Shown piece after piece: positions 11,199 through 54,962 of a DNA stretch of 64,000 nucleotides. The number at the start of each line of letters is the position of its first letter. Position 1 is the first letter of the stretch. Source of the stretch: an uncultured Gaiellaceae bacterium (GTDB taxonomy: Bacteria > Actinomycetota > Thermoleophilia > Gaiellales > Gaiellaceae); assembly GCA_963850995.1 (NCBI GenBank), contig CAWKNQ010000017.1:11115-75114 (forward strand), given 5' to 3'. Position numbers and translations under genes: made by a program. The notes beneath the pieces were generated by a model, which ran no database searches, was not told the DNA's origin, and saw only the letters and a list, made by a program, of their open reading frames with translations.

Positions 11199-13289
11199 CT
11201 GTCGCAGCTCGCGGAACAGCCGCTGCATCGCGCATTGGGCCTCACGGACCGCGAGTTGACGCGTATCGTCGAACTGCTCGGGCGCGAGCCGAACCACTTC
11301 GAGCTGGCGGTCTTCTCGCTCCTCTGGTCGGAGCACTGCGGCTACAAGCACTCGGCCCTCCTGCTGAAACGGCTTCCCTCCTCGGGGAAACGCGTGCTGC
11401 AGGGCCCCGGTGAGAATGCGGGCGTCCTCGATCTCGGCGACGGCGAGGCAGTCTGCTTCAAGGTCGAGAGCCACAACCACCCGTCCGCGGTCGAGCCCTT
11501 CCAGGGGGCGGCGACCGGGGTCGGAGGGATCCTGCGCGACGTGATCGCGATGGGCGCGCGGCCGATCGCGCTTCTCGACGGGCTCCGCTTCGCCGACGGC
11601 GACCCGCGTTTCGACCGTGCCGTCGCCGGGATCGGCGCCTACGGGAACTCGGTCGGCGTGCCGACGGTCGGCGGCGAGGCGGTCTTCGACGACACCTACC
11701 GCGACAACGTGCTCGTGAACGCGATGTGCGTCGGCCTCCTGCCCGCCGACCGCGTGACGCGCGCCGCTGCGAGCGGCCCCGGTCGGCTCGTCGTCCTCTA
11801 CGGCGCGACGACCGGCCGCGACGGGATCGGCGGGGCCTCGGTGCTGGCGAGCCAGGAGCTGGGCGAGGAGGACGCCGACAAGCGCCCAAGCGTCCAGGTC
11901 GGCGACCCGTTCACGGGCAAGCGGCTGATCGAGGTCTCGGTCGAGCTGGTCGAGTCGGGCCTCGTCGAGTCGCTCCAGGACTGCGGCGCGGCCGGCCTTG
12001 CCTCGTCGCTCTCGGAGATGGCACGCGACTGCGGGATCGACCTGCGCCTCGACCGGGTGCCGCTCCGCGAGGAGGGGATGGAGCCGTGGGAGGTGATGAT
12101 CTCCGAGAGCCAGGAACGGATGGTCGCCGTCGTCCGCCCCGAGATGCTCGACGCGGTCCTCGCCGTCTGCGACCGGTGGGAGCTCCACCGCGCCGTCGTC
12201 GGCGAGGTCACCGACAGCGGCCTCCTGCGCGCGCTCTGGGAGGACGAGGTCGTGGGCGAGATCCCGGCGCGCCTGCTCACCGACGAGTGCCCGCGCTACA
12301 CCGTCGAGCCGAAGCCGCGCGAGGAGCCAAGTAACAGTCTGTTACTTGGTGACGGTGACCGCCCGGCCCACACCGACGCGCTGCTCGAGCTGCTCGCGTC
12401 GCCGAACGTCCGCAGCCGCGAGCCGATCTACCGCCGCTACGACCATCTCGTCGGCTCCCGGACGGTTCGCCGCCCCGGCCTCGACGCTGCGGTGCTGCGG
12501 CTGCGGCCGGGCTACCGCGGCCTCGCCGTCTCGCTCGACGGCACGGGGCGGATGGGCCGCCTCGACCCGCGCACGGGCGGCGCGCTCGCCGTGCTCGAGG
12601 CAGCCCGCAACGTCGCCTGCACCGGCGCCGAGCCGCTGGGGCTGACCGATTGCCTCAACTTCGGCAACCCGGAGAAGGGGGAGATCGCCTGGGAGCTCGG
12701 TGAGTCGATCGAGGGGATCGCAGCGGCCTGCGAGGCGCTGCGCATCCCGGTCGTCTCCGGCAACGTCTCGCTCTACAACGAGACCGACGGACGCGCGATC
12801 GACCCGACCCCGGTCGTCGGCTGCGTCGGCCTGCTCGCGGACGTGCGACAGGTGCCGGGCGCCTGGCGCGAGGGCGACGTGATCCTGCTCGCGGGCGCCT
12901 CGCCGGTCGCGCTCGCGGGCTCCGAGTACCAGGCGCGCTACGGCGAGGTCGGCGGCCGCCCGGCGCGGCTCGACCTGGCGGCCGAGGCGGCGCTCGTCGA
13001 GTTCCTCTGGCGCGCGGCGCCGCAGTGCTCGCTCGTGCACGACGTCTCGCACGGCGGCCTCGCCGTCGCTCTCGCCGAGTCGGCGCTTCACTCCGAGCTG
13101 GGCGCGGACGTCGCGCTGCCGGAGGACCCGCGCGCCTGGTTCGGCGAGGGCGGCGGCCAGGCGGTGCTCGCCTGCGGGCCCGAGGTCGCGAACCGGCTCG
13201 GCGGCGTCCCGCTCCGGCGGCTCGGGGTCGTGGGCGGCGGGCGGCTGCTCGGACACGAGCTCGACGCGCTCAGGGACGCGTACTCCTGA
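11199..13289 (+). CDS. purL: Phosphoribosylformylglycinamidine synthase subunit PurL (FGAM synthase II)
   Basis: HRALGLTDRELTRIVELLGREPNHFELAVFSLLWSEHCGYKHS...ESHNHPSAVEPFQGAATGVGGILRD...GGASVLASQE.. is diagnostic. The start is uncertain: there is no ATG/GTG near the conserved N-terminus, and the candidates are CTG 11199 and TTG 11235. Confidence 0.9.
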   Translation: MSQLAEQPLHRALGLTDRELTRIVELLGREPNHFELAVFSLLWSEHCGYKHSALLLKRLPSSGKRVLQGPGENAGVLDLGDGEAVCFKVESHNHPSAVEPFQGAATGVGGILRDVIAMGARPIALLDGLRFADGDPRFDRAVAGIGAYGNSVGVPTVGGEAVFDDTYRDNVLVNAMCVGLLPADRVTRAAASGPGRLVVLYGATTGRDGIGGASVLASQELGEEDADKRPSVQVGDPFTGKRLIEVSVELVESGLVESLQDCGAAGLASSLSEMARDCGIDLRLDRVPLREEGMEPWEVMISESQERMVAVVRPEMLDAVLAVCDRWELHRAVVGEVTDSGLLRALWEDEVVGEIPARLLTDECPRYTVEPKPREEPSNSLLLGDGDRPAHTDALLELLASPNVRSREPIYRRYDHLVGSRTVRRPGLDAAVLRLRPGYRGLAVSLDGTGRMGRLDPRTGGALAVLEAARNVACTGAEPLGLTDCLNFGNPEKGEIAWELGESIEGIAAACEALRIPVVSGNVSLYNETDGRAIDPTPVVGCVGLLADVRQVPGAWREGDVILLAGASPVALAGSEYQARYGEVGGRPARLDLAAEAALVEFLWRAAPQCSLVHDVSHGGLAVALAESALHSELGADVALPEDPRAWFGEGGGQAVLACGPEVANRLGGVPLRRLGVVGGGRLLGHELDALRDAYS
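12327..12349. repeat. 23-bp low-GC perfect palindrome CCAAGTAACAGTCTGTTACTTGG (copy 1, central T), inside purL
   Basis: Read directly from the sequence. It is translated in frame as PSNSLLLG within a variable PurL linker. Confidence 0.9.
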
Positions 13290-14674
13290 TGTGCGGCGTC
13301 TTCGGAATCCGCTCCGCCGAGCGCGACGTGGCCAGGGTCTCGTACTTCGGTCTCTTCGCGCTCCAGCACCGCGGCCAGGAGGCGGCCGGGATCGCCGTCT
13401 CCGACCGGGGCCGGTTGACGGTGCTTCGCGATCTCGGCCTCGTCGCACAGGTCTTCAACGAGGAGAAGCTGCAGGCGCTCCCGGGCGACGTCGCGATCGG
13501 GCACACCCGCTACTCGACGACGGGCTCGTCGCACTGGGCGAACGCGCAGCCGCTCGTCCACCACGGGCGCGCCCGGACGGTCGCGCTCGGACACAACGGC
13601 AACCTGACGAACACGACCGCGCTCCGCGACGAGATCGCGGCCGAGGGGATCGCGCTGGGCGCAACGTCCGACACCGAGGCGATCGCGGCGCTGATCGCGC
13701 ACGATCCCGCGCCGCTGCCGCTCGCCGTCGCGGGAACGATGGCGCGGCTCGACGGGGCCTACTCGGTGGTCGCGCTCACCGAGGGCAAGCTGGTCGGCTT
13801 CCGCGACCCGCACGGAATCAGGCCGCTCGCGCTCGGCCGGCTCGGCCAGGACTGGGTGCTCGCCTCCGAGACGTGCGCGCTCGACCTGATCGGAGCCGAC
13901 TACGCGCGCGACGTGCGTCCCGGCGAGCTGGTCGTGATCGACGAGCAGGGACTGCACGCGAGCCAGGCGCTGCCCGAGGGCAGGCAGGCGCTCTGCATCT
14001 TCGAGCACGTCTACTTCGCGCGACCCGACTCCACGCTCGCCGGAGCGGAGGTGCACGGCGTCCGCGTCCGGATGGGCGAGCGGCTCGCCGGCGAAGCGCC
14101 CGTCGAGGCCGACCTCGTCATGCCGATCCCGGATTCCGGCACGCCCGCGGCCGTCGGCTACGCCCGGGCCTCGGGGATCCCCTACAGCGAGGGCCTGATC
14201 AAGAACCGCTACGTCGGCCGCACGTTCATCGAGCCGGACGAGGACCTGCGCCGGCAGGGGATCAAGATGAAGTTCAACCCGCTCGCCGAGGTCGCGGGCA
14301 AGCGGCTCGTGATCGTCGACGACTCGATCGTCCGCGGCTCGACCATGCGTCAGCTGGTCGCGATGCTCGTCGACGCAGGCGCGGCCGAGGTGCACGTGCG
14401 CATCTCGTCGCCGCCGATCGTCTCTCCCTGCTTCTACGGGATCGACATGGCAGACGAGGCGGAGCTCGCCGCGGCACACCGCTCCGTCGAGCAGATGCGC
14501 GAGCTGATCGGTGCGACCTCGCTCCACTACCTCTCGCTCGAGGGCATGCAGTCGGCCACGCGCCTGCCCGAGCAGTCTGTCTGCCGCGCCTGCTTCACCC
14601 GTTCCTACCCGACACGCGTACCTGCGGAGCGCACCCTGGCGAAGCTCCGGTTCGAGCCGGCCTCGCGCGGGTGA
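13289..14674 (+). CDS. purF: Amidophosphoribosyltransferase
   Basis: ATG at 13289 overlaps the purL stop. MCGVFGI...FALQHRGQEAAGI...the PRPP-binding VIVDDSIVRGST motif and the C-terminal Cys cluster are present. Confidence 0.95.
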   Translation: MCGVFGIRSAERDVARVSYFGLFALQHRGQEAAGIAVSDRGRLTVLRDLGLVAQVFNEEKLQALPGDVAIGHTRYSTTGSSHWANAQPLVHHGRARTVALGHNGNLTNTTALRDEIAAEGIALGATSDTEAIAALIAHDPAPLPLAVAGTMARLDGAYSVVALTEGKLVGFRDPHGIRPLALGRLGQDWVLASETCALDLIGADYARDVRPGELVVIDEQGLHASQALPEGRQALCIFEHVYFARPDSTLAGAEVHGVRVRMGERLAGEAPVEADLVMPIPDSGTPAAVGYARASGIPYSEGLIKNRYVGRTFIEPDEDLRRQGIKMKFNPLAEVAGKRLVIVDDSIVRGSTMRQLVAMLVDAGAAEVHVRISSPPIVSPCFYGIDMADEAELAAAHRSVEQMRELIGATSLHYLSLEGMQSATRLPEQSVCRACFTRSYPTRVPAERTLAKLRFEPASRG

Positions 14675-15324
14675 AGGTCGTCTCCGTCAACGCCGGCCGC
14701 GCCGAGCTGATGCGCATCGGCGGGCGGACGATCTCGACCGGAATCCGTAAGGCGCCCGTCGAGCGCGGGTACGTGAGCGCGCTGGGGCTCGTGGGCGACG
14801 TGGTCGCCGACGAGGAGAATCACGGTGGGCCGGACCAGGCGCTCTATCTCTACAGCGCCGAGGACTACGCCTGGTGGGCGGGCGAGCTCGGCGCGTCGCC
14901 TGCCCCCGGCACCTTCGGCGAGAACCTGACCCTCTCGAGCTTCGGCCCCGGTGAGGTGCGGATCGGCGACCGTTTCCGTGTCGGCGATGCGCTCGTCGAG
15001 GCGACGGCCCCGCGCATTCCCTGCGCGACGTTCGCGACGCGGATGGACGAGCCGCAGTGGGTGAAGCGCTTCGCCGCGGCGCGCCGCCCCGGTATCTACG
15101 TGCGCGTGCTCGAGCCCGGCGAGGTCGCGGCCGGCGATCCGGTCGAGCGCGTCGACTCGTCGAACGGCCATGCCACGATCGTCGAGCTGATGGACGCGTG
15201 GTACGACGCACAGCCGCCGCCCGAGCTGCTCGAGCGACTGTTCGCCTCACCTCTCGCCCTGCGGGCCCGTGCAGGCCTCGAACGCAAGCGCCGGCGCAAC
15301 GAACGACCAGGCTCCCGCTCCTAG
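14671..15324 (+). CDS. MOSC-domain protein
   Basis: A GTG start overlaps the purF stop (GTGA). VKVVSVNAG...GLVGDVVADEENHGGPDQALYLY...PRIPCATFA...IYVRVLEPGEVAAGD is typical of the MOSC/YiiM family. Confidence 0.8.
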   Translation: MKVVSVNAGRAELMRIGGRTISTGIRKAPVERGYVSALGLVGDVVADEENHGGPDQALYLYSAEDYAWWAGELGASPAPGTFGENLTLSSFGPGEVRIGDRFRVGDALVEATAPRIPCATFATRMDEPQWVKRFAAARRPGIYVRVLEPGEVAAGDPVERVDSSNGHATIVELMDAWYDAQPPPELLERLFASPLALRARAGLERKRRRNERPGSRS

Positions 15325-15370
15325 ACTTTCGGGGGTCGTATCCGTCCGGCGCTTTCCCGATGATTTCGGC

Positions 15371-15601
15371 ATGAAGATCGTGATTCGCCACGACGAGGCG
15401 GGTCAATGGTGGTGGACGGCGCTCGGCGACACCGGCGGTGCAGCGGCGATCTCGAGGCTCTATCCCAGCCGGTGGGAATGCATGCGCGCAGTGGCGGAGC
15501 TGAAGGTGGAGGGCCCTGCCGCGGCGGTCAGCTACGAGGAGCCCTACGCGGCGAGCCCGGGCACGTGGACGATCTCGAGCTTGATGCCGTCCGGGTCGTA
15601 G
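15371..15601 (+). CDS. Small hypothetical protein (possibly YegP/DUF1508-like)
   Basis: The protein starts MKIVIRHDEAGQWWWTALGDTGGAAAISRLYPSRWECMRAVAELK. The 3' end overlaps the convergent VOC gene by 58 nt. The family call is weak. Confidence 0.4.
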   Translation: MKIVIRHDEAGQWWWTALGDTGGAAAISRLYPSRWECMRAVAELKVEGPAAAVSYEEPYAASPGTWTISSLMPSGS

Positions 15602-15975
15602 AAGAAGACCGCGTAGTAGCCGGGTGAGTAGGCGTATTCGCGCGGCGGCGTCTCGATCGTCGCGCCCGAGCCGACGAGCCAGGCGTGTCGCTCGTCGACG
15701 ACCGCGCGGGAGCCCGCCTCGAGCGCGAGATGGTGCAGCCCCACTTCGTACCGGTCGATCCCGCCGAGGCGCTGGATCGTTCGAGTACCAGGTGCCTGCC
15801 GGATCCCGATCGAGCTGCCGGGACCGCCGAAGTACCAGATCGTCTCGCCCCGCTCGCCCTCGACTTCCGAGACGCGGTGGTAGCCGAGCGGGCCGAGCAG
15901 ATCGCGGTAGAACGGCAGGCTGCGCTCGACCGAGGAGACGACCAGGTCGATGTGATGCACCCCGCTCGAGCGCAT
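15544..15975 (-). CDS. VOC/glyoxalase-family protein
   Basis: ATG at 15975. The protein reads MRSSGVHHIDLVVSSVERSLPFYRDLLGPLGY...GLHHLALEA...YYAVFFYDPDGIKLEIV. Confidence 0.75.
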   Translation of the reverse strand: MRSSGVHHIDLVVSSVERSLPFYRDLLGPLGYHRVSEVEGERGETIWYFGGPGSSIGIRQAPGTRTIQRLGGIDRYEVGLHHLALEAGSRAVVDERHAWLVGSGATIETPPREYAYSPGYYAVFFYDPDGIKLEIVHVPGLAA

Positions 15976-15988
15976 TGAGACTTGGTGT

Positions 15989-16837
15989 TCAGCGCGGCCC
16001 GGCCAGCTCCTGCGCGCGGCCGTAGCGGACGGCGCGCTGAACCGTGCGCGGGTCGAGGCCGCGCTCCAGGAGCTCCTGGCGCAACTCCCCCTCCTTCGCC
16101 AGCCGGAGGAAGAGCCACGCAAGCGCGACGATCGTGACGAGCGAGCCCTCGATCATCATCACGGCGCCGGCGAGGCCCTGGTCCTGGAGCGGCGAGACGC
16201 CCCACAGCTCCTCCCCCTCCGCGTAGACGCCGTAGAAGACGGTGCCGGACCAGACGAAGGCGTTCCCGAGAATCGTCTCGACGACGCGGACGCACGCGAT
16301 GTAGCCCAGCTTCGGCCCGGTCCCGAACCACTCCGGCGCGGGCAGCGTCTCGAGGACGGGCAGCCACATGATCACTCCGGCCGTGAAGAAGCAGATGTGC
16401 TCGAGCGCGTGGACGGTCGAGTGGCGGACGGCCGCCTCGTACAGGAGCGGCAGGTGCCAGAGATAGAGGTTGGCAGCCCAGAGCGGCAGCGCCACGAGGG
16501 GGTTGGCGAGCACACGAAGGCGCTCGACGGGGCGGAACGCGAGCAGCGGCCGCAGCATCGGCCCGGAAAGGCCGGCGAGCAGGCAGAGCGGTGCGAGATC
16601 CCCGATCACGACGTGCTGGAGCATGTGGAAGCTGAAGAGCTCCTCCTCGCCGATCGCGGCGACCGGGGAGGCGAATACGAGCAGGAGCAGGGCGATCCCG
16701 AGGCTGAAGAGAACGACCCGCCAGGTGGCCATCGGCGTCCCGCGGCGCCGGAGCGTGCGCGCCCTCAGGCCGTAGGCGAGCGCGGCGAGCACGACCGGAG
16801 CGAGCTGCAGCGGGTCGATCGTCCAGTCGGTGAGCAC
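15989..16837 (-). CDS. ctaG: Cytochrome c oxidase assembly factor CtaG (Caa3_CtaG family membrane protein)
   Basis: The 282-aa polytopic ORF carries HMLQHVVIGDLAPLCLL...LWHLP...ALEHICFFTAG, characteristic of Caa3_CtaG. Confidence 0.75.
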   Translation of the reverse strand: MLTDWTIDPLQLAPVVLAALAYGLRARTLRRRGTPMATWRVVLFSLGIALLLLVFASPVAAIGEEELFSFHMLQHVVIGDLAPLCLLAGLSGPMLRPLLAFRPVERLRVLANPLVALPLWAANLYLWHLPLLYEAAVRHSTVHALEHICFFTAGVIMWLPVLETLPAPEWFGTGPKLGYIACVRVVETILGNAFVWSGTVFYGVYAEGEELWGVSPLQDQGLAGAVMMIEGSLVTIVALAWLFLRLAKEGELRQELLERGLDPRTVQRAVRYGRAQELAGPR

Positions 16838-16874
16838 GCGCTCACTCTACGAGCCTTCGTAGAATCCGCCGCTC

Positions 16875-17486
16875 GTGCGCCTCTTCCACTACCACCTCGT
16901 CACGACCAACGTGCGCCGGGTGGAGGCGCGGTACATCGGCAAGCTCGCGTTCTCGCTCGTCGCGAGGCACGGGCGGATCGGGGAGGACTACCAGTCCTTC
17001 TCCGCCGGGACCTCATGGGAGGAGCTCGACGAGCTGGGTTTCAAGCTGCGGCTCTCCGAGCTCGAGCATGGGGCGGTCAACGTCGTCGTCCAGCCCGGTC
17101 AGTGGGAGCTGCCGCGGGTCGACCACCTCGGGCTCGCGTTGGACGAGGACGAGTTCGGTGACGTGATCGACCGCGCCGTCGACCGCGAGCTCCGGGTGCA
17201 GGCGCACGGTGGGAGGCGGACCTTCGTCTCCACGAGCGCCGGCTACCGGCTCGAGGTGCACCCGCCGCGCGAGTGGCTGAACGACCTGCTCGAGTCGGCC
17301 GACACGCTGACGCTGAGCGAGCTGCACCTGCTCGCGGACGACCCCGACGCCAAGGCGACAGTGCTCGCCGACCTGCTCGCGACCGAGCGGGACGGGACGA
17401 GCGTGGAGGTGGGCGACGCCGTCGTCCGCTTCCTGCCGGGCGGGCCGCAGGGTCGTCCGCAGCTCCACGCCGAGCTCTTCAGCTGA
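16875..17486 (+). CDS. Hypothetical protein (glyoxalase-like fold suspected)
   Basis: The 203-aa ORF begins MRLFHYHLVTTNVRRVEARYIGKL...VDHLGLALDEDEF. The family call is weak. Confidence 0.45.
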   Translation: MRLFHYHLVTTNVRRVEARYIGKLAFSLVARHGRIGEDYQSFSAGTSWEELDELGFKLRLSELEHGAVNVVVQPGQWELPRVDHLGLALDEDEFGDVIDRAVDRELRVQAHGGRRTFVSTSAGYRLEVHPPREWLNDLLESADTLTLSELHLLADDPDAKATVLADLLATERDGTSVEVGDAVVRFLPGGPQGRPQLHAELFS

Positions 17487-17523
17487 CCGGAGGCCTTCCG
17501 CGGGAGGTCGTAGACTCGCTCTC

Positions 17524-18423
17524 GTGAGCGACGACCGGACGTACGCCGCCGCCGGGGTCTCGCTTGCGACCGCCGCGGACGTCGTCGAGCGGCTCCGCGC
17601 GGCCGTCGAGTCCACGGGCGCGCGCGGCTTCGGCGCCTTCGCCGGGCTGCACCCGCTCGACGAGCGACGGCTACTCGCGGCCTCGACCGACTCGATCGGG
17701 ACGAAGCCCGTCGTCGCCCGCCCGCGCGGCGCTCTGCGGTCGTGCGGCGCCGATATGGCTGCGCACTGCATCAACGACGTGATCACGTGCGGAGCCGACC
17801 CGCTGATCCTGCTCGACTACGTCGCCGCGAGCCGGCTCGACCTCGAGCAGGTGGCGGAGCTGGTCGAGGGCGCCGCCGAGGTCTGCCGCGAGGCCGGAGT
17901 CGCGCTGATCGGAGGTGAGACCGCGGAGCTGCCGGGGGTCTATCGCGAGGGCGAGCTCGATTTCGCGGCGACCTGCGTGGGGATCGTGGAGCGAGAGCAC
18001 GTGCTCGACGGCTCGGCCGTGCGGGACGGCGACTACGTGGTCGGCTTGCCGTCGGCGGGTGTCCACGCCAACGGCTTCACGCTCGTCCGCTCCGTGCTGG
18101 AGCTGGAGGACTACGACGGGCCCGACCTACTCGCCCCGACCCGCCTCTACCTCGACGACGTCCGCCGCCTCCGCGGGACGGCGCATGCGTTCGCGCACGT
18201 CACCGGCGGCGGGATCGCGGGCAACCTCGCCCGCGTGCTGCCCGAAGGGCTCCGGGCCGAGCTCGATTGGGACGCCTGGGAGCGCCCACCGGTGTTCGAC
18301 TGGCTCGCTCGTCACGTCGACGAGGAGGAGGCGCGCCGCGTCTTCAACCTCGGGATCGGCTACTGCGCCGTCGTGCCGGAGCCCGGCGACGGGCTCGTGA
18401 TCGGCCGCATCGTCCCGGAGTGA
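17524..18423 (+). CDS. purM: Phosphoribosylformylglycinamidine cyclo-ligase (AIR synthase)
   Basis: YAAAGVS...STDSIGTK...NDVITCGADPLILLDY...IGGETAELPGVY...PSAGVHANGFTL...AHVTGGGIAGNL are PurM motifs. At 299 aa it is somewhat short. Confidence 0.9.
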   Translation: MSDDRTYAAAGVSLATAADVVERLRAAVESTGARGFGAFAGLHPLDERRLLAASTDSIGTKPVVARPRGALRSCGADMAAHCINDVITCGADPLILLDYVAASRLDLEQVAELVEGAAEVCREAGVALIGGETAELPGVYREGELDFAATCVGIVEREHVLDGSAVRDGDYVVGLPSAGVHANGFTLVRSVLELEDYDGPDLLAPTRLYLDDVRRLRGTAHAFAHVTGGGIAGNLARVLPEGLRAELDWDAWERPPVFDWLARHVDEEEARRVFNLGIGYCAVVPEPGDGLVIGRIVPE

Positions 18424-18957
18424 TCGGTGTTCTGGTCAGTGGGGAGGGCTCGAACCTGCAGGCGCTGCTCGACAAGCGGGCTTCCCGTGCGCGCCGTCGC
18501 CTCGAACGACCCCGGCGTCCGCGCGCTCGAGCGCGCGGAGCGCGCAGGGGTTGCGGCGCGCGTCTTCGAGCTCGACGGCTATCGCAAGCTCGGGACGGCG
18601 CGCGACACCGCCATGGCCGACTGGCTCGACGCCGAGGGTGTCGAACTCGTCGTCTGCGCAGGCTACATGCACCTGCTCACCGCGGCCTTCCTCGACCGCT
18701 TCCCCGGTCGGATCGTGAACGTGCACCCGTCGCTCCTGCCCGCCTTTCCGGGCGCGCACCCGATCGAGGACGCGCTTGCCGCAGGTGTCGAGACGACAGG
18801 CGTGACCGTCCACGTCGTCGACGAAGGGCTCGACACGGGCCCTGTCCTGCGCCAGGAGCCGCTTCCGGTCGAGCCGCGCGAGACGCTCGTCGAGCGCATC
18901 CACGCCGTCGAGCACCGGCTCCTGCCCGAGGTGGTGAGAGAGCTGTGCGCGCGCTGA
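18420..18957 (+). CDS. purN: Phosphoribosylglycinamide formyltransferase, interrupted by a 1-nt frameshift at the GGG run 18478-18480
   Basis: The N-terminal VIGVLVSGEGSNLQALLDKR starts at a GTG at 18420 that overlaps the purM stop. The remainder, LPVRAVASNDPG...NVHPSLLPAFPG...TGVTVHVVDEGLDTGP, is in the +1 frame (ORF 18427..18957). Confidence 0.8.
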
Positions 18958-20477
18958 TCTCCGTTTGGGACAAGACGGGCCTGGACGAGCTCGCGGCCGG
19001 ACTTGCCGAGCTCGGCTGGGAGCTCGTCGCGAGCGGCGGCACCGCGGCGCAGATCGAGGAGCTCGGTCTCGAGGTGACGAGGGTCGAGAGCCTGACCGAG
19101 TTTCCGGAGATGCTCGGCGGCCGCGTCAAGACCCTGCACCCGCGCATTCACGGCGGCATCCTCGCGCGGCGAGAGGTGGAGGCGGACGTCGCCGCGCTCG
19201 CCGAGCACGGGATCGAGCCGTTCGACCTCGTCTGCGTCAACCTCTATCCGTTCGAGCAGGTCGCGCGTGAGCACGGTGTCCGCGAGGAGGAGGCGGTCGA
19301 GATGATCGACGTCGGCGGGCCGGCGATGCTGCGGGCTGCCGCGAAGAACTTCGCCCACGTCGCGCCGCTCTGCCGGCCGGCCGACTACCCGACCGTGCTC
19401 GCGGAGCTGCGCGAGCACGGCGAGCTCGCGCACGAGACGCGCCGGGCGCTGGCCGCGACGGCGTTCTCCACCTCGGCGTCGTACGAGTCGGCGATTGCGG
19501 GCTGGTTCGCAGGCAGGCAGTCGTTCCCCGACGTGCTCGTGCCGGCGTTCGAGAAGCAGCTCGATCTCGCTTACGGCGAGAACCCGCACCAGCGCGCCGG
19601 CTACTACGCGGAGCGCGGCGCCCGCACGCACCTGCTCGCCCGCGTCGAGCAGCTGCACGGACGGGAGCTCTCGTACAACAACCTGAACGACCTGAACGCG
19701 GCCCGCCTGCTGCTGCGCGAGTTCACGCTGCCGGCCTGCGTGATCGTCAAGCATGCGAACCCGTGCGGAGTCGCGGTCGGCGCGTCGATCGAGGAGGCGT
19801 ACGAGCTCGCGCACGCCGCCGACCCGCTCTCCGCCTACGGCGGCGTCGTCGTGCTGAACCGGCCCGTCTCAGCCGTGCTCGGCGAGCGGCTCGCGGAGCA
19901 GTTCGTGGAGGTGCTCCACGCGCCCGGCTACGCCGAGGACGCACTGGAGGCGCTCACGCGCAAGCCGTCGACGCGGATCCTCGACGACCGCGAGCGGCGC
20001 GCGCCGGATCCGTCCGAGCGTCACTACCGGCGTGTGCTGGGCGGGCTGCTCGTGCAGGAGCGCGACTGGGACGTCGCCGACCGCGAGGGGATGGAGGTCG
20101 TCGCCGGGCAGCCGTCCGAAGCCGCCTGGGGCGACCTCCTCTTCGCCTGGCGCGTCTGCAAGCACGTCACCTCGAACGCGATCGTGCTCGTGCACGACCT
20201 CCACACGATCGGGATCGGCGCGGGGCAGATGAGCCGCGTCGACGCCGTCCGGATCGCGCTCGAGAAGGCGCGGGCGCACGGCCACTCGCTCGAGGGCGCT
20301 GCGCTGGCGTCCGACGCGTTCTTCCCCTTCCCGGACGGACCGCGGCTCGCGCTCGAGGCGGGCGTGACGGCGCTGATCCAACCCGGCGGCTCGAAGCGGG
20401 ACGAGGACGTCGTTGCCGCCGTCCAGAGCTCCGGCGCCGCGATGGTCTTCACCGGCCGCCGGCACTTCCGTCACTGA
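18945..20477 (+). CDS. purH: Bifunctional AICAR transformylase / IMP cyclohydrolase
   Basis: GTG at 18945. VRALISVWDKTGL...GGRVKTLHPRIHGGILA...VNLYPF...KHANPCGVA...GQMSRVDA...IQPGGSKRD...TGRRHFRH is present. Confidence 0.95.
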   Translation: MRALISVWDKTGLDELAAGLAELGWELVASGGTAAQIEELGLEVTRVESLTEFPEMLGGRVKTLHPRIHGGILARREVEADVAALAEHGIEPFDLVCVNLYPFEQVAREHGVREEEAVEMIDVGGPAMLRAAAKNFAHVAPLCRPADYPTVLAELREHGELAHETRRALAATAFSTSASYESAIAGWFAGRQSFPDVLVPAFEKQLDLAYGENPHQRAGYYAERGARTHLLARVEQLHGRELSYNNLNDLNAARLLLREFTLPACVIVKHANPCGVAVGASIEEAYELAHAADPLSAYGGVVVLNRPVSAVLGERLAEQFVEVLHAPGYAEDALEALTRKPSTRILDDRERRAPDPSERHYRRVLGGLLVQERDWDVADREGMEVVAGQPSEAAWGDLLFAWRVCKHVTSNAIVLVHDLHTIGIGAGQMSRVDAVRIALEKARAHGHSLEGAALASDAFFPFPDGPRLALEAGVTALIQPGGSKRDEDVVAAVQSSGAAMVFTGRRHFRH

Positions 20478-20538
20478 TCCGTGGACGCGCTCGAACTGGT
20501 GTGCGCACGTAACGGCGCCTTCGCACCGTTCGTGCGAC

Positions 20539-25496: not shown

Positions 25497-25498
25497 CG

Positions 25499-26496
25499 TC
25501 AGGCTGACCTGATGAAGCTCGCCTCGTGGCCGCGGGAGTTGGCGGCCTCGAGCTCGTCCCGGGTGAGCGCGCCGATCCGCTCCAGCAGCTCGAGCTCGTC
25601 GCGCAGGTGCGTGCGCATCATCTCGGGCCCGTCCGTCGCGATCGTGAAGGCGACGCCGTTCTCGACGAACGCCCGGAACGTCGCGCGCACGGCATCCTCG
25701 TCCGGGAGCGCCTTCGTGAGCAGGTTCGACGTCGGGCAGATCTCCAGCACGATGCCCTGCTCCTGCAGGAGGCGCATCAACTCGGGGTGCTGGGCCGCGA
25801 GGATGCCGTGGCCGATCCGGTCGGGGCGAAGGTGCTCGACCACCTCTCGCGACCTCCTCCGCGCCCGTCTCGCCTTCCTCCCCGACGTGGATCGTGACGC
25901 CGAGCCCCGCCGCCCGCGCGGCCTCGACCATGGGTGTGATCTGCGTGTAGTCGTAGCGGCCACCGCCCGGCCGCGGGCCTGCGATGTCGATTCCGACGAC
26001 TCCCCGTGATGCCCAGCTGATCGCCTTCTCGACGATCACTTCGTTCTGCCGGTGCGAGAACGTCCGGTCCATCATCAGGATCAGTCCGGCTCGAACCTGC
26101 GGATACTCGAGGCCGGCGATGTCGAGACCGCGGATCGCGGCGAGGATGATGTGGTCGAGGTCGCGCTCGCCGCCCCGGTTCCGCTTCATCGGGTTGAAGC
26201 GCAGCTCGAGCGTCGTGATCCTCTGGCTGCGATAGGCGCCGCCGATTGCGCCGTGCACCGAGCGCTCGACTGCGAGCGGGGAGGACTGGATCAGCTCCGT
26301 CCAGTGGTAGATCCGGTCGAGCGCGTCGAGGTTCTCGACGCCGCGCGGGATCGGAGACGGTGACGAGCGCGTCGAACTCCCAGTAGTCCTTCACCGGGAG
26401 CGCGATCCCCTGCTCGTGCGCGAGCGACCAAAGGATGTCGGAGGCGACCGAGCCGCCGAGGTGGGTGTGCAGCTCGGCGAGACCCTGGTCGAGCAT
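25499..26496 (-). pseudogene. Adenosine/AMP-deaminase-family metallohydrolase with two frameshifts (~26350 and ~25850)
   Basis: The motifs are in order but in three frames: AELHTHLGGS (ORF 25777..26496), TLELRFNP...TIHVGEEG (ORF 24804..26258 frame), then RIGHGI...LEICPTSN...TIATDGP (ORF 25499..25963). Confidence 0.7.
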
Positions 26497-26511
26497 CGCG
26501 TTCGAGCTTAT

Positions 26512-26534
26512 CCAAGTAACAGACTGTTACTTGG
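26512..26534. repeat. 23-bp palindrome CCAAGTAACAGACTGTTACTTGG (copy 2, central A)
   Basis: Read directly. It lies 16 nt upstream of the deaminase ATG (26496) and contains the TAA stop (26527-26529, minus strand) of the esterase gene. Confidence 0.9.
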
Positions 26535-27156
26535 CGTCGAGCGCGCTCGCGACGAACTCTCGGAGCTCGGGGACGATGCGGGGGTCGATCGTGTGCGCGA
26601 GCGGCGCTTCGCGGTAGAGCACGTCGGCTCCGGCCTGCTCGAGCGTGGCCCGCGCCTGGCGGCTGAAGTCGGCCGGGATGACGGCGTCGAGCGAGCCGTG
26701 GGCGATCGCGACCGGGTAGCCCTCGAGCCCGCCGAGGTCGAGCTCGAGCCCGTCGACGCTGGGCATGAACCCTGAGAGGGCGACGATCCCGGCGGGCCGC
26801 GTACCGGCGCCGCGGCCGAGCCCGAGCGCCCAGCTCATCACCGCGCCCTGAGAGAAGCCGCCGAGCACGGTGCGCTCGAGCGGGATGTCGAGCGCGTCGA
26901 GCCAGGCCGACGCGGCCTCGAAGGTGGGCCAGAACGTGGACGGTTCCGGGGTGGGGAGGCCGCCCAGCGCATACCAGTGCGCGCCGCCCGGGGGCAGCGA
27001 GAGCGGCCCGCGCGGGGTCACGCCGAGGAGTCGCCTCTCCGGGTCGAGGGCGTCGAGAAGGGGGTAGAGGTCGCGCTCGTCGGCGCCGCGGCCGTGCAGG
27101 AGGACGAGCGCGCCCTCCGGCTCGGCCGCGGCGGGCCGCTCGAGCGCCTCGATCAC
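26527..27156 (-). CDS. Phospholipase/carboxylesterase-family alpha/beta hydrolase (MhqD-like)
   Basis: A GTG at 27156 overlaps the upstream stop (GTGA). LVLLHGRGADERDL...GGFSQGAVMS...IAHGSLDAVIP is present. Confidence 0.8.
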   Translation of the reverse strand: MIEALERPAAAEPEGALVLLHGRGADERDLYPLLDALDPERRLLGVTPRGPLSLPPGGAHWYALGGLPTPEPSTFWPTFEAASAWLDALDIPLERTVLGGFSQGAVMSWALGLGRGAGTRPAGIVALSGFMPSVDGLELDLGGLEGYPVAIAHGSLDAVIPADFSRQARATLEQAGADVLYREAPLAHTIDPRIVPELREFVASALDAK

Positions 27157-43945: not shown

Positions 43946-45167
43946 CTACCTGCAGGTGCTCGGTGCCGGCTTGCCGGCGAAGCGGTCGGCGATCCAGCTC
44001 GACGACGTCGCGGCACGGCGACGTGTCCGGCGGCGAGGTGAGCGATGCCGGGGATAGAGGCGGAGCTGCGACGGTCTCGCCCTGCTCGCAGAGCTTGTCC
44101 ACGAGCCGCTTCGTCAGGTCAGGCGGCGATGATCGGGTCTTCAGTCGCCCTGGGTGATCAGGATCGGAGCACCGGTCCGTGGGTGCCTCCGGGCGTGTTC
44201 TGCATCGAGGATCGTCTTCCACGGCTCCGCTTCCCACGGCGGTGTGTGGAGGAAGGTGAGGTCGAGCGCGAGCGCGGCGCGGCACCGAGGCGAGGATCTG
44301 CTTCTGGTTGTAGAGGCAGTTGCTCGGCGATCCTGCCGACGAGCGGGCGTGCCACGGGCGTGACGATCTGGTCGAGGCTGGCGTCGTCGTAGACGCTCGC
44401 CCAGGACTGCATCGCCATCGCGATCAAGATGCGGCCGACGGTGGTCTCGATGTTGACCGCGAAGAGCTCCTCGAGATTCGGCACCGGGGCTCCGGCCGCG
44501 ACCCCGACGAGGGTCAGCTCGGGTGCGTAGCCGGAGGCGAGCTGACCGGTGAAGAGCGATGCGTGCCCGCCTTGGGAGTGGCCCCACACAACGAAGTCGG
44601 CGCTCGCATTCGCCTGGGTCAGGTTGCGGGCGGCGCGCACGCTGTCCAATGCGTTCATGGCCTCCGCGTCGCCGACGAGGTACGGGTGCGGACCGGGTGT
44701 GCCGAGCCCCTGGTAGTCGCTGGCCGCAACGACGTAGCCGGCTTTCAGGAGCTCGGCGCCGCCCTCGAAGAGCAGCGGCTGCTGCTCCGGGTTCGTGACG
44801 AGCGAGGGCGCGCAGTTGGACGCGACGCCGACGGTGCCGTGCGTGTACGCGATGACCTTCCGGCCCTCCGCGGGAGGCTCTCCGTGCGGCACGACGATCA
44901 ACCCACTGACGGCCGCCGGGTTGCCGTCGAAGCCGGTCGACTTGTAGAGCACCCGGTAGGCGGTCGCGCCGGGGTAGAAGCCCTCGACGACCTCGCGGCG
45001 GATGATCGTTCCTGGAGGCCCTCGGGAAGAGGCGAGGGTGCCGAGTAGAACGCTCCGGGATCGGCGCGGCCGGCGCGATCGATGGCGACGCTGATCGCTA
45101 TTCCGCGAGCGAGAGGAAGGCCACTGCGCTGATCAGGCGCAGGACGCGGCCAGGTGCCGACTCTCAC
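43946..45167 (-). pseudogene. Secretory-lipase (LIP) family alpha/beta hydrolase, multiply frameshifted
   Basis: The pieces, read in gene order, lie in ORFs 44898..45167, 44158..44952 (YKSTGFDGNPAAVSGLIVVP...VVWGHSQGGHASL), 44141..44587 (PWKTILDAEH...APILITQGD), 43680..44285 (LVDKLCEQGETV) and the tail ...WIADRFAGKPAPSTCR* ending at 43946. At least 4 frame switches are needed. Confidence 0.7.
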
Positions 45168-47267
45168 GGCTCGTCTCTACTGCGCGCTTCAGCTCGACGG
45201 CGTTATGAAGCTGATCCCGCCGTTAGCTGAACAGAACCGCGAGGACGACGTCGCATCTGTAGGACAGGGCTGAGATATCGGCCACACGTTTTGTTTGCTC
45301 TGGATGAGCTGTTCGTCGTCGCTGCTGAAAGCGCTGTAGAGCTTGATGGCGCTGCCCACGACGAGCGCGATCGATCGTGATCGCAGTGCTCGGATCGTCA
45401 GACCTGGCCATTCCGGCTAAGGTCGGTGATCACAGATGCTGACGAACTGCGACCTCCGGCTGCGAAGCGGTGCGGACGATGAAGATCGCCGAGGCCGGAA
45501 CGACAGCGCCGCCACGACGAGAACGCGAGGATGTCAGCGATCGGACGGATCTGCGATCAGCAGCCACCAGAGCGACGTGCGGCTCGTCCGTCGAGTCTCT
45601 CGGCGGTGTCGATCCATTGCTGTCTCATAATCAGCTAGGTGTTGTTAGCTGCAATTGAGAATACTGTGTGATTCTGAAGATAGGGTAGATGGATAGGTTT
45701 TGCGATAGATAAGGTGTCGGCGGGTGGCACGGCTGCACTGTCGCTGCGGGAGTGGCGAGGTTTCGTCGGTGACGGTGAGGGTCGCTTTCTCCAAGGCGTA
45801 AGTCGTCTACTGTTGCGCTATGGTTCGTCCTGTGTTAAGCTGCGTGCTATTAGCTGATCTGACTGCGGTGGAGCGATGTTTGAGGTAGCGACAGAGGTGC
45901 TCGCTGGAATGCTGCTCCGTCGTTTAGCGGCGGTGTGACCTCCTCGATCTCGGTGAATTTCGCGAGTGGGACGAGCGTGCAGCTCGGTGCGCTGACAGCT
46001 CGTGCTCCGGCGACGTCCTGCGGCTTTTTTTTTTAGGCTCTTCGTTTTGTGTGTGTCTCTTTTTTCTTCTAGGTCTACGTCGCTATTGTTATCAATGCCG
46101 ATGATGTGTGCTGAGTGTTAGTTGCTGGTGTTGAATGCTGAGATTAGCGGAGGTGTTGTGTGCACGCGGCTCGCTGATCTCTTCTACGCCGACGCTGTCG
46201 ACGGCAGGGAGCGAGCCTCTTTTGCCGTCTGGCGTTCTAGAATGTCATTGCTCGCTAGTGACGGTTTGGATGCGAGATGATTGCGCTAGTGGTGCACTCG
46301 ATCCTCTGCGATCGACTGGATCGAGGTATTTTTGATGTGCTTATATGCTAGCTTTCTCTACATCGAGATCGGAGTGCGGCGTTGCAGATCGATAGGTTGC
46401 GCTGGCTGAATCTCGGTTCGCTACCTGTCTTCCGCAGGATTTACTCTGTTCTGTGCGTCTTTTCTGTCTGCTGTGGTCTGTTACTTCGTCGGCGGCTTGC
46501 TTTCCACGTTTTGCTTGTGTTTCGGTGCTGCTGGCCTATGTTTTGTGTGCGCTTGCTGCGCTAGTTTCAAATGGGTTCGACGAGCTCTGACGGTATGCGT
46601 CCAGTTCGGGGAGCTCTCAATGATCTGTGTGACCGCCGGTTCTTAGCGCTTGCGCTCTCGGCCGCGCTGCCGCTCCGCGTCTGTGTTCGATCGAGCCATT
46701 TCGTTATGCGTAGGGCTTGCAGTGAGATGTTAGGGCGGGTTGTGATCGAAGGGCTAGAGATCGAGCTGGCCGCGCTCTCGCTAGTAGCTAGCTGCGGAGA
46801 GTGCGTTCGTCACGTGCCGCTTTTTCGATCCTCGTCGCGAGCGCTTGTCTGACTGGTACGTCGCGCTCGGCGCTTTCGATATGGAGCGCGTCGCTGCGTC
46901 GACTCTTGCATAGCTGATGGCGTGTTGATGCGTAAGGCTCGCGTGTGCTGACGCGATGCGGCTCGCTTACTCTGTAGCGAGTACCGGTGCGCGCTAGTAC
47001 GATACTGACGAGAAGCGGTCGTGAGCACCTCCGCCCTTGATTTCCGACGTGTGCGCGTCGTCTTCGCGCGCTGCTCGCGCGCGCGCCGCTGCCCCTGTCC
47101 GTTCCACCGCGAGCGTCGGCATCGCCTTCCCGAAGGGCAGCGCCTGCGCGAGCGTCACGCGGCGTGCGCCGCTCCGCCCTGCCCTAGAACGCTGGCTGAG
47201 CGTGACTCGAGCTCCGCGGCTGCGCTGAGCGGCGCGCCGGCTGCCGCGCGCTCCGCCTAGCGTAGGA
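45168..47267. other. ~2.1 kb ORF-poor, low-GC, strand-skewed non-coding block (function unknown)
   Basis: No ORF longer than 93 aa is present and none has a recognisable family. Stops occur in all frames. Hand counts over eight 60-nt lines between 45661 and 46680 sum to A59 C98 G155 T168 (of 480). The block contains T10 (46025-46034) and GT/CT-rich tracts. GC returns to about 70% after ~47040. Confidence 0.6.
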
Positions 47268-51458: not shown

Positions 51459-51549
51459 GACGCACCGAGAGTAGAGACAAAAGGAACACGGGGTTGGGCT
51501 GCGCGCGACGAGCGCCGCTCCACGATGGGCGGCGTCAGTGCGGCCGCCG

Positions 51550-52056
51550 TCACGAGCACGAGCTGCCACATGGGAGGCGAGCCGGCCACCAGGTCGGCGC
51601 GGCGGAACGCGTGCACGGCGAGCAGAAGCACGGCGATCCCGAGAGCGCAGCTCGCGCGAGCGCGACTGCGGCACGCCGGATGAGCAACGCGCCGACGGCG
51701 AGCACGATCGCGGCCAAGTAACAGACTGTTGCAAGGGTGAAGAGCGTCTCGAGCCCGGCCGGCGCTTTCCCCTCCGGCCACGGGGCGGGCGGGATATGCC
51801 GCTCGAGCCCCTGGACGAAGCCGAACACCGTGACGATGCCGAAGAGAACGAAGAGCGCGGCGAGCCGCGGGTGCGGCCTCGGGGCGAGCTCGTTGAAGCG
51901 CGCGGCCACCTCCTCGGTCGTGCCGAAGCGCTCCATCGCCTCCTGGTCGCCGCCGTCGTCCAGCAGGTGCGCCTCCACCTCCGCCAGGATCCGGCGCCTG
52001 CGCCACGGGGAGACGCGAAGCTGCGCGGCGAGGGCGGCGAGGTAGTTGTTGATCAC
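51550..52056 (-). CDS. PadR-associated membrane protein (DUF1700-like N-terminus); C-terminal part probably frameshifted near ~51650
   Basis: A GTG at 52056 overlaps the PadR stop (GTGA). INNYLAALAAQLRVSPWRRRRILAEVEAHLLD is followed by TM segments. After ...AVALARA a better TM-like continuation (ALGIAVLLLAVHAF...) lies in another frame. Confidence 0.5.
   Translation of the reverse strand: MINNYLAALAAQLRVSPWRRRRILAEVEAHLLDDGGDQEAMERFGTTEEVAARFNELAPRPHPRLAALFVLFGIVTVFGFVQGLERHIPPAPWPEGKAPAGLETLFTLATVCYLAAIVLAVGALLIRRAAVALARAALSGSPCFCSPCTRSAAPTWWPARLPCGSSCS
51713..51735. repeat. Degenerate copy of the 23-bp palindrome (CCAAGTAACAGACTGTTGCAAGG, 3 mismatches in one arm)
   Basis: Read directly. 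It lies inside the membrane-protein coding sequence and is translated as LATVCYL within a predicted TM helix. Confidence 0.8.
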
Positions 52057-52361
52057 GCGACGACCGCCCCGACTGCGTTTGCGAACACGAGCCACTCCTC
52101 GCGCCTACGGGCGAGCTCGCGCCGCCCGCTTCGCGTGAGCGAGTAGACGCGGCGGCGTCGACCCGACTCTGTCGACCAGCGGCTCGCGACCACGCCGGCC
52201 GCCTCGAGCCGGTGCAGTGCGGGATAGACGGTTCCCTCTGGCAGCTCGAACCCGCCGCGACGCCGCAGTGTTTCGATCACGGCATAGCCGTGGAGCGGCT
52301 TGTCCGCGAGCACCGACAACAGCAGCAGGTCGAGGTGGCCCTTCAGCTGCTCCGCCTTCAT
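52053..52361 (-). CDS. PadR-family transcriptional regulator
   Basis: ATG at 52361. The protein reads MKAEQLKGHLDLLLLSVLADKPLHGYAVIETLRRRGGFELPEGTVYPALHRLEAAGVV. Confidence 0.85.
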   Translation of the reverse strand: MKAEQLKGHLDLLLLSVLADKPLHGYAVIETLRRRGGFELPEGTVYPALHRLEAAGVVASRWSTESGRRRRVYSLTRSGRRELARRREEWLVFANAVGAVVA

Positions 52362-52379
52362 ACCTAGCAATTCTAGGTA
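52361..52379. promoter_or_regulatory. Palindrome TACCTAG-CAATT-CTAGGTA abutting the PadR start codon (candidate autoregulatory operator)
   Basis: Read directly. The 7-bp perfect arms form a low-GC island. Confidence 0.45.
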
Positions 52380-52407
52380 AAGCGCACGCGGAGCGCAAGT
52401 CCGGCGC

Positions 52408-53088: not shown

Positions 53089-53153
53089 CGGCCCTCCACC
53101 ACGGGACGGCTGGATGCGGCGTCTTCTTCCCTGCGCGGGGGTATCCTCGGCCC

Positions 53154-54347: not shown

Positions 54348-54350
54348 CGC

Positions 54351-54947
54351 TTGCGGCTCGCGCTCGACTGGGACGGGACGGTGACCGTCGAGGACTCGCT
54401 CGTGCGGGTGATCCACGAGTTCGGCGATCCCGCCTTGCTCGCCGAGCTCGAGCCGAGAGTCGGCGTCGACCTGACGCTGCACGAGGAGATCGCGCTCGAG
54501 TTCGCCTCGATCACCGCCCCGCTCGAGCAGGTCGTGAGCTGGGTGGTCGCGCACATCGAGGTGCGGGACGGGCTGCACGAGCTCGCCGAGCGCCACCGCC
54601 CGCTCGTGATCTCGGCCGGATTCGAGGAGCTGATCGAGCCCGTGCTCGCCCGGGAAGGCGTGCAGCTCGAGCTGATCGCGAACCGCGTCGAGGCTCGCCG
54701 GGAGGGCTGGCGCGTGCACTTCCGCGACGAGTCCGCCTGCGCTACCTGCGGCGAGCCGTGCAAGCGCGCCGGCCTCTCCGGCGAGCCGTACACGTACGTC
54801 GGGGACGGCTACTCCGACCGCTGCGCGGCGCTCGCCGCCGACCGCGTCTTCGCCCGTGACGGGCTCGCCCGCTACCTCGACGAGCGCGGCGTCGCCTACG
54901 AGCCCTTCGACGATCTTCGCGACGTCGCGGCCGCGTTGGCCAAGTAA
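54351..54947 (+). CDS. HAD-superfamily hydrolase (PSP/MtnX-like subfamily)
   Basis: TTG start. LALDWDGTVT (DxDxT) ...VISAGF...YVGDGYSDRCAA is present. The TAA stop lies inside the palindrome at 54940-54962. Confidence 0.7.
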   Translation: MRLALDWDGTVTVEDSLVRVIHEFGDPALLAELEPRVGVDLTLHEEIALEFASITAPLEQVVSWVVAHIEVRDGLHELAERHRPLVISAGFEELIEPVLAREGVQLELIANRVEARREGWRVHFRDESACATCGEPCKRAGLSGEPYTYVGDGYSDRCAALAADRVFARDGLARYLDERGVAYEPFDDLRDVAAALAK

Positions 54948-54962
54948 CAGACTGTTACTTGG
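54940..54962. repeat. 23-bp palindrome CCAAGTAACAGACTGTTACTTGG (copy 4, central A)
   Basis: Read directly. It supplies ...GCC AAG TAA (AK*) to the HAD gene and lies ~130 nt upstream of the sugar-binding-protein gene. Confidence 0.9.

Follow-up and report, generated by a model that had tools for sequence, protein, structure and literature searches.

A dispersed 23-bp palindrome at gene ends in Gaiellaceae and a small arginine-rich protein as its candidate binding partner

The stretch of DNA considered here, referred to as the window, comprises 64,000 nucleotides of contig CAWKNQ010000017.1 from an uncultured Gaiellaceae bacterium (assembly GCA_963850995.1, positions 11,115 to 75,114 of the forward strand), and the element in question is a 23-bp palindrome that recurs within it. 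The palindrome is a real, lineage-wide repeat of the Gaiellaceae/Thermoleophilia rather than a sequencing or assembly artefact, and it is the predicted binding site of a small arginine-rich protein whose gene is flanked by copies of it. A search of the 64-kb window with the pattern CCAAGTAACAGWCTGTTACTTGG returned three perfect matches and one copy with three mismatches, which are listed with the genes they touch.

12327-12349: copy 1, CCAAGTAACAGTCTGTTACTTGG, perfect, central base T, in frame in the purL linker
11235-13289, plus strand: purL, which holds copy 1, read as EEPSNSLLLGDGD (PSNSLLLG)
26512-26534: copy 2, perfect, central base A, on the stop codon of an Abhydrolase_2 gene
26527-27168, minus strand: Abhydrolase_2 gene, ending ...ALDAK-stop, with the TAA at 26527-26529 taken from copy 2
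51714-51736: copy 3, CCAAGTAACAGACTGTTGCAAGG, three mismatches, all in one arm, translated in frame
51550-52056, minus strand: HAAS-domain membrane protein gene, which encloses copy 3, read TLATVCYLAA
54940-54962: copy 4, perfect, central base A, its TAA at 54945-54947 being the stop codon of a HAD-hydrolase gene
54351-54947, plus strand: HAD-hydrolase gene, ending ...AALAK-stop
from 55094: solute-binding protein gene, the next after copy 4

The three perfect copies were found again by pattern search where a sequence-only reading of the window had placed them, with T, A and A as central bases. The same reading had correctly assigned three mismatches in one arm to the remaining copy, but its coordinates for that copy (51713-51735) were one base off. 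The variant arm of copy 3 is made up of arm types (GTTGC and CAAGG) that recur in other genomes. As first described, copies 1 and 3 are translated and copies 2 and 4 sit on gene ends, to which they supply TAA; an adenosine deaminase gene also appears to start, at the ATG at 26499, 13 bp downstream of copy 2. The palindrome is poor in GC against the window (65-75% GC), although its own content, counted from the sequence, is 10/23 or 43% and not the 39% first given. No match to the palindrome occurred in any of 100 dinucleotide-preserving shuffles of the window (the number expected by chance is zero), which agrees with the earlier assertion that such recurrence is not a chance event. An 11-nt half-site reported at 46476-46486 proved to lie at 46478-46488 on the minus strand and to carry one mismatch (CGAAGTAACAG). 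About 0.06 half-sites with one mismatch are expected per window, and this one, which falls inside an odd non-coding stretch at 45000-47250, is probably a chance match. The absence of mobility genes from the window was borne out, as no transposase or recombinase Pfam family was detected among its approximately 66 predicted proteins, and Rfam and tRNA scans of the window found nothing.

In a scan of species-representative genomes, the exact 23-mer was present in at least 113 eight-kb tiles from 73 assemblies (the number of accession prefixes among the matches listed), and nearly all of these tiles were labelled Gaiellaceae, Gaiellales, Thermoleophilia or unclassified Actinomycetota. It is present in long-read assemblies, the longest contig of which measures 1.86 Mb (CAWDZG010000002.1), and likewise in short-read ones, and the assemblies stem from several projects and assemblers. 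The worry that the motif might be an artefact is refuted because it lies within long contigs of 73 assemblies made independently and with different technologies. Copy 2 of the window has an orthologous perfect copy in another species (L074), where the flanks are 87-95% identical. Sites are sparse, with four in the 64-kb window, none in most loci of 16-20 kb and, as estimated from the site lists, about one cluster of sites for every 100 kb of the motif-selected tiles. A search of viral contigs turned up no 23-mer and no copy of the small protein discussed below. No paper containing the 15-mer core was found in a literature search, matches to the 11-mer were unrelated primers only, and a search on palindromic repeats of Gaiella returned nothing relevant; neither the motif nor the protein family was found described. 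One carrier of the palindrome (L101, CAVTCB010000005.1) is labelled 'uncultured Gemmatimonadales', is 86-91% identical to a Gaiellaceae tile (L005) and is probably mis-binned or mislabelled.

The repeat unit is limited to 23 bp. Flanks are unrelated between copies, and the next base outside the unit shows only a weak preference on each side, for G (59%) or C (55%). The unit has an 11-1-11 layout in which the half-site, derived with the inclusion of 50 non-consensus copies from the same loci, is 5'-CCWWGYAACAG-3' (C-C-W-W-G-Y-A-A-C-A-G); in matrix form the whole site is CCWWGYAACAGWCTGTTRCWWGG. Positions G5, A8, C9, A10 and G11 of the half-site are essentially invariant, and variation falls at positions 3-4 (W) and 6 (Y). 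Exact half-sites number 252, come from about 126 full sites and are essentially never found alone. A and T are equally frequent at the centre (59:59), and neither is favoured on the sense strand of the gene that ends at the site (43 A to 42 T). The GTAAC and GTTAC cores of the two half-sites are 10 bp apart, centre to centre, and dyad symmetry runs through the centre. Changes in the arms at base pairs 1/23, 3/21 and 4/20 are mostly one-sided and break the pairing; at pair 4/20 there are 28 pair-breaking changes versus 2 compensatory ones. Some arm combinations, such as CCAAG...CAAGG or CCTTG...CTTGG, are direct and not inverted repeats, and the arms therefore behave as two independent recognition half-sites rather than as a paired stem. 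Direct repeats of 2-8 bp, as would be left by target-site duplication, occur around 159 sites at chance level, as does extension of the palindrome into its flanks. A possible origin of CCWWGG as the target duplication of a 15-bp insert was rejected, since it fails for the majority form CCAAG...CTTGG.

Sites are distributed very unevenly with respect to genes. Among 148 classifiable sites, 64 hold the stop codon of a gene, which is nearly always a TAA at site positions 6-8, so that the protein ends ...K-stop, and about 10 of these 64 serve both members of a convergent pair. Another 43 are between tandem genes, mostly 0-15 nt past the upstream stop codon, 20 are between convergent genes and 2 are between divergent genes. 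Coding sequence encloses 16, which are translated in only two open frames, giving the peptides PSN[SR]LLLG or QVT[VD]CYL. In about a quarter of the tiles a second site lies 49-79 bp away; the two sites are always non-identical, the spacer between them is unconserved, and two perfect copies are never found less than 100 bp apart. At one origin-proximal locus (L054 1185-1487, with its orthologue L108) two sites mark the 3' end of rsmG (gidB), one within the coding sequence and the other 3 nt past the stop codon, and these are followed by a gap of about 600 bp, parA and parB. This arrangement is kept in two species. Identification of the sites near rsmG and parAB as parS or Noc-type sites was rejected, since they are dispersed and do not resemble parS in sequence.

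Comparison of orthologous loci indicates how copies come and go. A site at L104:152 is missing at the same locus in L041 and L048, with a net difference of about 32 bp and replacement of the last residues of the gene by ...AK-stop. The number of sites at one convergent junction ranges from none in L006 through one in L059 to two in L035 and L086. L099 has two sites versus one in L038, the difference being exactly one spacer plus one site, and L040 is filled versus L063, which is empty. These comparisons indicate that a new copy comes as a short, untidy indel rather than by clean insertion of 23 bp. Of the two signatures that the sequence-only reading had proposed looking for in orthologous loci, empty sites were thus found, but target duplications beyond chance were not. 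Where sites are retained between species, their cores are identical and the spacers of paired sites cannot be aligned. Alignment of homologues places copy 1 of the window in a hypervariable linker of PurL, and another PurL has SNSLLL at a different position.

A candidate for the protein that recognizes the palindrome came from several pairs of sites 348-394 bp apart, which enclose an open reading frame (ORF) of 91-97 aa with the conserved sequence LGLPRPSYExVRxL. Both flanking sites, 348-407 bp apart, are present in 10 of 10 complete loci of this small gene. Wherever a locus extends far enough upstream, a site is present 38-153 bp ahead of the aligned N-terminus, and the downstream site is 0-52 bp past the C-terminus, often supplying the stop codon. 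Six of the 113 motif-selected tiles contain the small gene, where roughly 0.3 would be expected, by our own estimate, for a single-copy gene in a genome of about 3 Mb. Loci retrieved by the protein alone (L114, L115 and L117) have palindromes only around the small gene within 16-20 kb. Its neighbourhood is syntenic within subclades, as L117, L119 and L120 share one context and L116 and the P0053 contig another, and differs between deep clades. A different small ORF (L055 245-661, about 100 aa, MKSVLFLDVDG...) is also bracketed by two sites, which are 394 bp apart, and its stop codon lies within the second of them, which shows that genes other than the candidate cognate gene can be bracketed too.

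At 90% identity the small-protein family falls into 117 clusters, every one of them annotated as hypothetical, and at 50% identity (E <= 0.001) into about 500. The 150 listed of these 500 are all stand-alone proteins of 63-185 aa. A C-terminal lysine is present in 68 of 265 family members, and peptides read through a site in 10. The proteins are basic, with a mean net charge of +6 and 17% arginine. An AlphaFold2 model (pLDDT 88) has five helices in 94 aa. Searches for Pfam, NCBIfam or PHROG families returned nothing credible, a profile search against the PDB matched only designed helical repeats, which is a compositional effect, and a Foldseek search of the PDB with the model gave nothing below E = 1. 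Weak fold matches include several DNA-binding winged-helix or helix-turn-helix domains, among them those of RTP (E = 3.3), Orc/Cdc6, PadR and Fur.

The four subfamilies of the small protein correspond to four variants of the palindrome, with GTAACAG, GCAACAG (type ii), GTGACA (type iii) and GTATCTC (type iv) cores.

Main family: flanking palindrome GTAACAGWCTGTTAC
P0080 and P0086 ('IELF' C-terminus): flanked by GCAACAGWCTGTTGC (GCAACAG-type)
P0074, 55% identical to the query: four GTGACA[CT]TTCGTCAC copies round the gene, one giving its TGA stop codon
P0117, 43% identical: GTATCTCTGAGACAC upstream and GTATCTCTGAGATAC on the stop codon, with TGA in the palindrome centre

From one protein lineage to another the palindrome changes symmetrically, yet the gene stays bracketed; the strongest evidence for recognition of the palindrome by the protein lies here. 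The palindromes of P0074 contain the type iii 15-mer GTGACAYTTCGTCAC, and no site of the TAACAG type occurs in the 17.6 kb of that locus. Residues S46, Y47 and R51 are invariant. A near-invariant arginine before PSY (R44) is replaced by glutamine in P0074 and by histidine in P0053, both of which are flanked by GTGACA-type sites; glutamine is also found at this position in P0080, which is flanked by GCAACAG-type sites. A metagenome scan with the type iii 15-mer gave 120 matches, which are attributed to chance because they are spread over all GC contents and none is accompanied by the small gene. Downstream of the type iii small gene in L116 (7640-8240) is a non-coding region of about 600 bp with two more GTGACACTTCGTCAC sites, each followed by AAGGAG. 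The same region contains about three tandem copies of a GC-rich repeat of about 60 bp (at about 8000-8160) and, at 7711, the related palindrome CTTGTGGCAGTTCGCTACAAG.

The reading favoured here, to which the sequence evidence gives roughly even chances, is that the palindrome is the binding site of a dimer of the small arginine-rich, all-helical protein, whose gene is flanked in a manner resembling that of the transposase genes associated with repetitive extragenic palindromic (REP) sequences. Of the two interpretations offered by the sequence-only reading, a dispersed 11-1-11 protein-binding site has become the better supported, with a strong candidate for the protein. A dimer of the protein of about 90-100 aa would bind the 23-mer as a high-affinity site, and recognition is likely to be of duplex DNA rather than RNA. 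The gene for the protein is itself bracketed, with one site about 40-150 bp upstream of the coding region and the other at the stop codon or just past it, and protein lineages and palindromes have changed together. Copies come and go as short, untidy indels and persist almost only where the harm is small: at stop codons or directly behind them, in the gaps of convergent or tandem gene pairs, and, in the two open frames, within variable loops of proteins.

The closest known architecture is that of REP sequences and the REP-associated tyrosine transposases (RAYTs). REP palindromes are found mainly at gene 3' ends and in intergenic regions and sometimes supply a stop codon or lie in ORFs (PMC3733652). 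Two repeat copies always bracket the RAYT gene, and the repeat covaries with the gene lineage (PMC2817692). The Gaiellaceae system is similar in having dispersed, often paired palindromes at 3' ends, a cognate gene flanked by two copies, a repeat type that follows the gene lineage, and a vertically inherited arrangement that is conserved across the lineage. It differs from REP/RAYT in its actinobacterial host and in the flanked gene, the product of which (about 95 aa, all-helical, no Pfam match, no listed relative above 185 aa) is not an IS200/IS605-like Y1 (HUH) enzyme. The cognate gene for which the sequence-only reading had suggested a search thus has a candidate, but not one of the RAYT/Y1 type. 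REP sequences are imperfect palindromes with an unpaired GTAG/CGTC head and a stem kept by compensatory changes (PMC3733652, PMC2817692), whereas the Gaiellaceae palindrome is perfect, fully symmetric and headless, and its stem pairing is lost in variants. REP sequences are also characterized by high copy numbers, above 100 per genome, whereas the Gaiellaceae palindrome, to judge from the window, the tiles and the loci of 16-20 kb, may have a copy number in the tens.

The favoured reading also has parallels in dimeric, autoregulated factors such as LexA with its SOS boxes and the controller C proteins of restriction-modification systems with their C-boxes. Features in common are inverted half-sites whose core contacts are separated by one helical turn, a site in front of the candidate factor's own gene, position-specific variation of half-sites and, if the apparent copy number holds, tens of sites per genome. 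The sites nevertheless differ from LexA or C-protein operators in occurring almost all at gene ends, stop codons and convergent junctions, in that the second site is always on or just after the stop codon of the candidate gene itself, and in arising by insertion-like indels that include coding sequence. Proteins that act as roadblocks or terminators include RTP at Ter in B. subtilis, Tus at Ter in E. coli, Reb1 in yeast and mTERF in mitochondria, and in B. subtilis rtp is adjacent to a Ter site of its own, through which it is autoregulated. The Gaiellaceae system is like RTP-Ter in its small candidate DNA-binding protein and in having specific sites of some 20-30 bp where transcription units end; RTP itself is among the weak fold matches of the small protein, although at an E value that is not significant. 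Unlike Ter sites, the Gaiellaceae palindromes are perfect and hence non-polar, they are far more numerous, and they are not known to cluster at a terminus.

It is conceivable, if speculative, that bound sites serve as orientation-independent boundary elements, in the sense of a roadblock or insulator, at gene 3' ends. Such a role is suggested by the bias toward stop codons and convergent junctions, the avoidance of divergent promoters and the independence of orientation. Alternatively, the bias toward stop codons and convergent junctions could merely reflect where insertions are tolerated. The fuller proposal of a new REP/RAYT-like partnership, in which a protein of about 95 aa from a new family, without a recognizable catalytic domain and with at least four specificities, acts at sites that have spread to gene 3' boundaries in Gaiellaceae as an orientation-independent roadblock or insulator, is put forward only tentatively and is doubtful on present evidence. 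If true, it would give a high-GC lineage with few intrinsic terminators a terminator that depends on a protein, and possibly represent a new means of marking off transcription units in compact genomes of high GC content. The Gaiellaceae are among the most abundant and least cultured of the soil actinobacteria, and to our knowledge almost nothing is known of their gene organization and regulation. A conserved 23-bp element at gene ends in at least 73 species, together with a candidate protein with four covarying specificities, constitutes a testable recognition code, which could be protein-DNA or protein-RNA. It may also be a second, non-transposase example of one flanked gene with dispersed palindromes, an architecture so far known from REP/RAYT. 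In practical terms, the sites explain many ...K-stop gene ends and the odd PSN[SR]LLLG and QVT[VD]CYL peptides in predicted proteomes, and the motif is a possible lineage marker for binning and for the detection of mis-binned contigs.

Several observations weigh against binding of the palindrome by the small protein as duplex DNA. The small protein has no significant match to any DNA-binding family, and its helix-turn region departs from the canonical helix-turn-helix. Most sites are outside promoter regions, as the count of 2/148 for divergent regions illustrates, and an ordinary repressor/operator role therefore fails to explain them. The centre of the type iii palindrome (ACTTC) is asymmetric. 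A periodicity in the spacing of paired sites (best at 11.2 bp, P = 0.04 raw) lost its significance when orthologues were merged (P = 0.23). In the syntenic relative L118, at 84% identity, copy 1 has decayed at five positions (CCGAGTGCCAGTCTGTTACAAGG), which shows that constraint does not extend to every copy. The gene calls on which the placement of sites depends come from a self-trained codon log-odds caller, which is crude and assigns 89% of the sequence as coding. Finally, an RNA hairpin is feasible, with folding energies of -14.6 kcal/mol (perfect copy) and between -9 and -10 kcal/mol (variants).

This last point leads to the rival that survives best, which is nonetheless unlikely. The palindrome might act as an RNA element, with a hairpin of 10-11 bp at mRNA 3' ends serving as a bidirectional terminator, a stabilizer or a landing pad for a protein. 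The same arginine-rich protein could be the one that binds, autoregulating by means of hairpins in the 5' and 3' untranslated regions of its own transcript, and a small arginine-rich protein is compatible with RNA binding. The strong 3'-end, stop-proximal placement of the sites is as this explanation would have it, and REPs near stop codons are known (PMC3733652). A palindrome also gives the identical hairpin on both transcripts of a convergent pair. The fold of the perfect copy is well beyond that of shuffled sequences (z = -5.1), and variants still fold, with a 2x2 internal loop. Variation in the arms points the other way, as the changes are mostly one-sided and pair-breaking with no compensatory excess, and conservation of the stem sequence itself over 73 species is unneeded for a role in structure only. 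Symmetry continues through what would be the loop, and the loop base has no bias with the direction of transcription (43:42). Intrinsic terminators combine a GC-rich hairpin with a U-tract, whereas here the stem is 43% GC and thus AT-rich for a genome of 70% GC, no U-tract follows the site, the flanking bases are G or C, and Rfam has no match. A role as an RNA hairpin is consequently disfavoured relative to recognition of duplex DNA.

It is less likely again that the palindrome is a REP/REPIN-like element or a miniature inverted-repeat transposable element (MITE) moved by a RAYT or other transposase encoded elsewhere in the genome, either by cut and paste or by copying of single-stranded-DNA hairpins, with the small protein as an accessory or bystander. 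Filled and empty orthologous loci, differing copy numbers at the same junction, in-frame copies at independent positions of PurL and pairs of sites 49-79 bp apart are all in keeping with mobility, and REP termini can supply stop codons and lie in ORFs (PMC3733652). The sequence-only reading had likened the palindrome to REP, MITE and Rickettsia palindromic elements (RPEs), and in its genomic behaviour (3' ends, stop codons, in-frame copies, filled and empty loci, a flanked cognate gene) the comparison holds. Like RPEs, the palindromes are tolerated in frame within genes, here in a membrane helix as well as in the linker of PurL. An RPE spans about 100-150 bp and contributes an entire peptide segment to its host protein. 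The Gaiellaceae unit differs in being 23 bp and mostly extragenic, with only 16/148 sites intragenic. The molecular hallmarks are those that fail: the 2-8 bp duplications around the 159 sites do not exceed chance, as they would for a MITE or small transposon, no GTAG/CGTC head is present, complementarity of the arms is not maintained, and the repeat is only 23 bp. Unconserved spacers mean that the pairs are not REPIN units, and the inserted segments are untidy, with a net size of about 32 bp instead of a precise 23 bp. No transposase, of the Y1 type or other, is in the window or beside any site examined, the flanked gene encodes a 95-aa all-helical protein judged unable to be an HUH or DDE enzyme, and the apparent density of sites is low.

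Highly improbable is a third explanation, in which the palindromes are att- or attC-like recombination sites at the boundaries of small gene cassettes, the small gene itself being a cassette that integrated at a site and solo sites being landing pads or scars. Bracketing of the small gene and at least one other ORF (that of L055), the variable neighbourhood of the small gene between deep clades and the lack of two perfect copies within 100 bp could be seen in this light, and the difference between L099 and L038 is what site-by-site recombination predicts. The crossover regions of known recombinases are 6-8 bp for tyrosine and 2 bp for serine recombinases, with which a centre of 1 nt is incompatible. 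There is no recombinase near any site examined, the small gene is syntenic within subclades, and ordinary housekeeping genes flank most sites. A DNA uptake signal built up by biased uptake and recombination, like the DNA uptake sequence (DUS) of Neisseria or the uptake signal sequence (USS) of the Pasteurellaceae, would suit the family-wide conservation over many species, the terminator-like intergenic and tolerated in-frame placement and the absence of both site and small protein from viral contigs, but is the least credible of the four, since half-sites essentially never stand alone, the density of at most 1 per 16 kb is orders of magnitude under that of DUS or USS, and the tight, covarying link to one small gene is left unexplained.

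The window has other features near the palindromes. Pfam domains indicate a purine biosynthesis cluster at 11235-20477 (purL, purF, purM, purN and purH), which is syntenic with the metagenomic contig L118 at about 84% identity. The presence of copy 1 in purL and of copy 2 upstream of the adenosine deaminase gene raised the possibility of a purine regulon, which was rejected because the other copies and 113 further loci share no functional theme. The adenosine deaminase gene, on the minus strand, appears to be split into overlapping ORFs in different frames (25777-26499 and 25499-25843), the Pfam A_deaminase match being confined to the latter. The split could represent a frameshift pseudogene or an indel error of long-read assembly, and many homologues from the same kind of assemblies are fragmented too. 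The stretch at 45000-47250 consists of about 2.2 kb without a convincing ORF, has a lower GC content of about 64-65% and a strong excess of T over A (AT skew -0.36), and carries runs such as ggcttttttttttaggctcttcgttttgtgtgtgtctcttttttcttc. It is situated upstream of fragmented ORFs for secreted proteins of the DUF11/RTX type at 47.4-49.8 kb.

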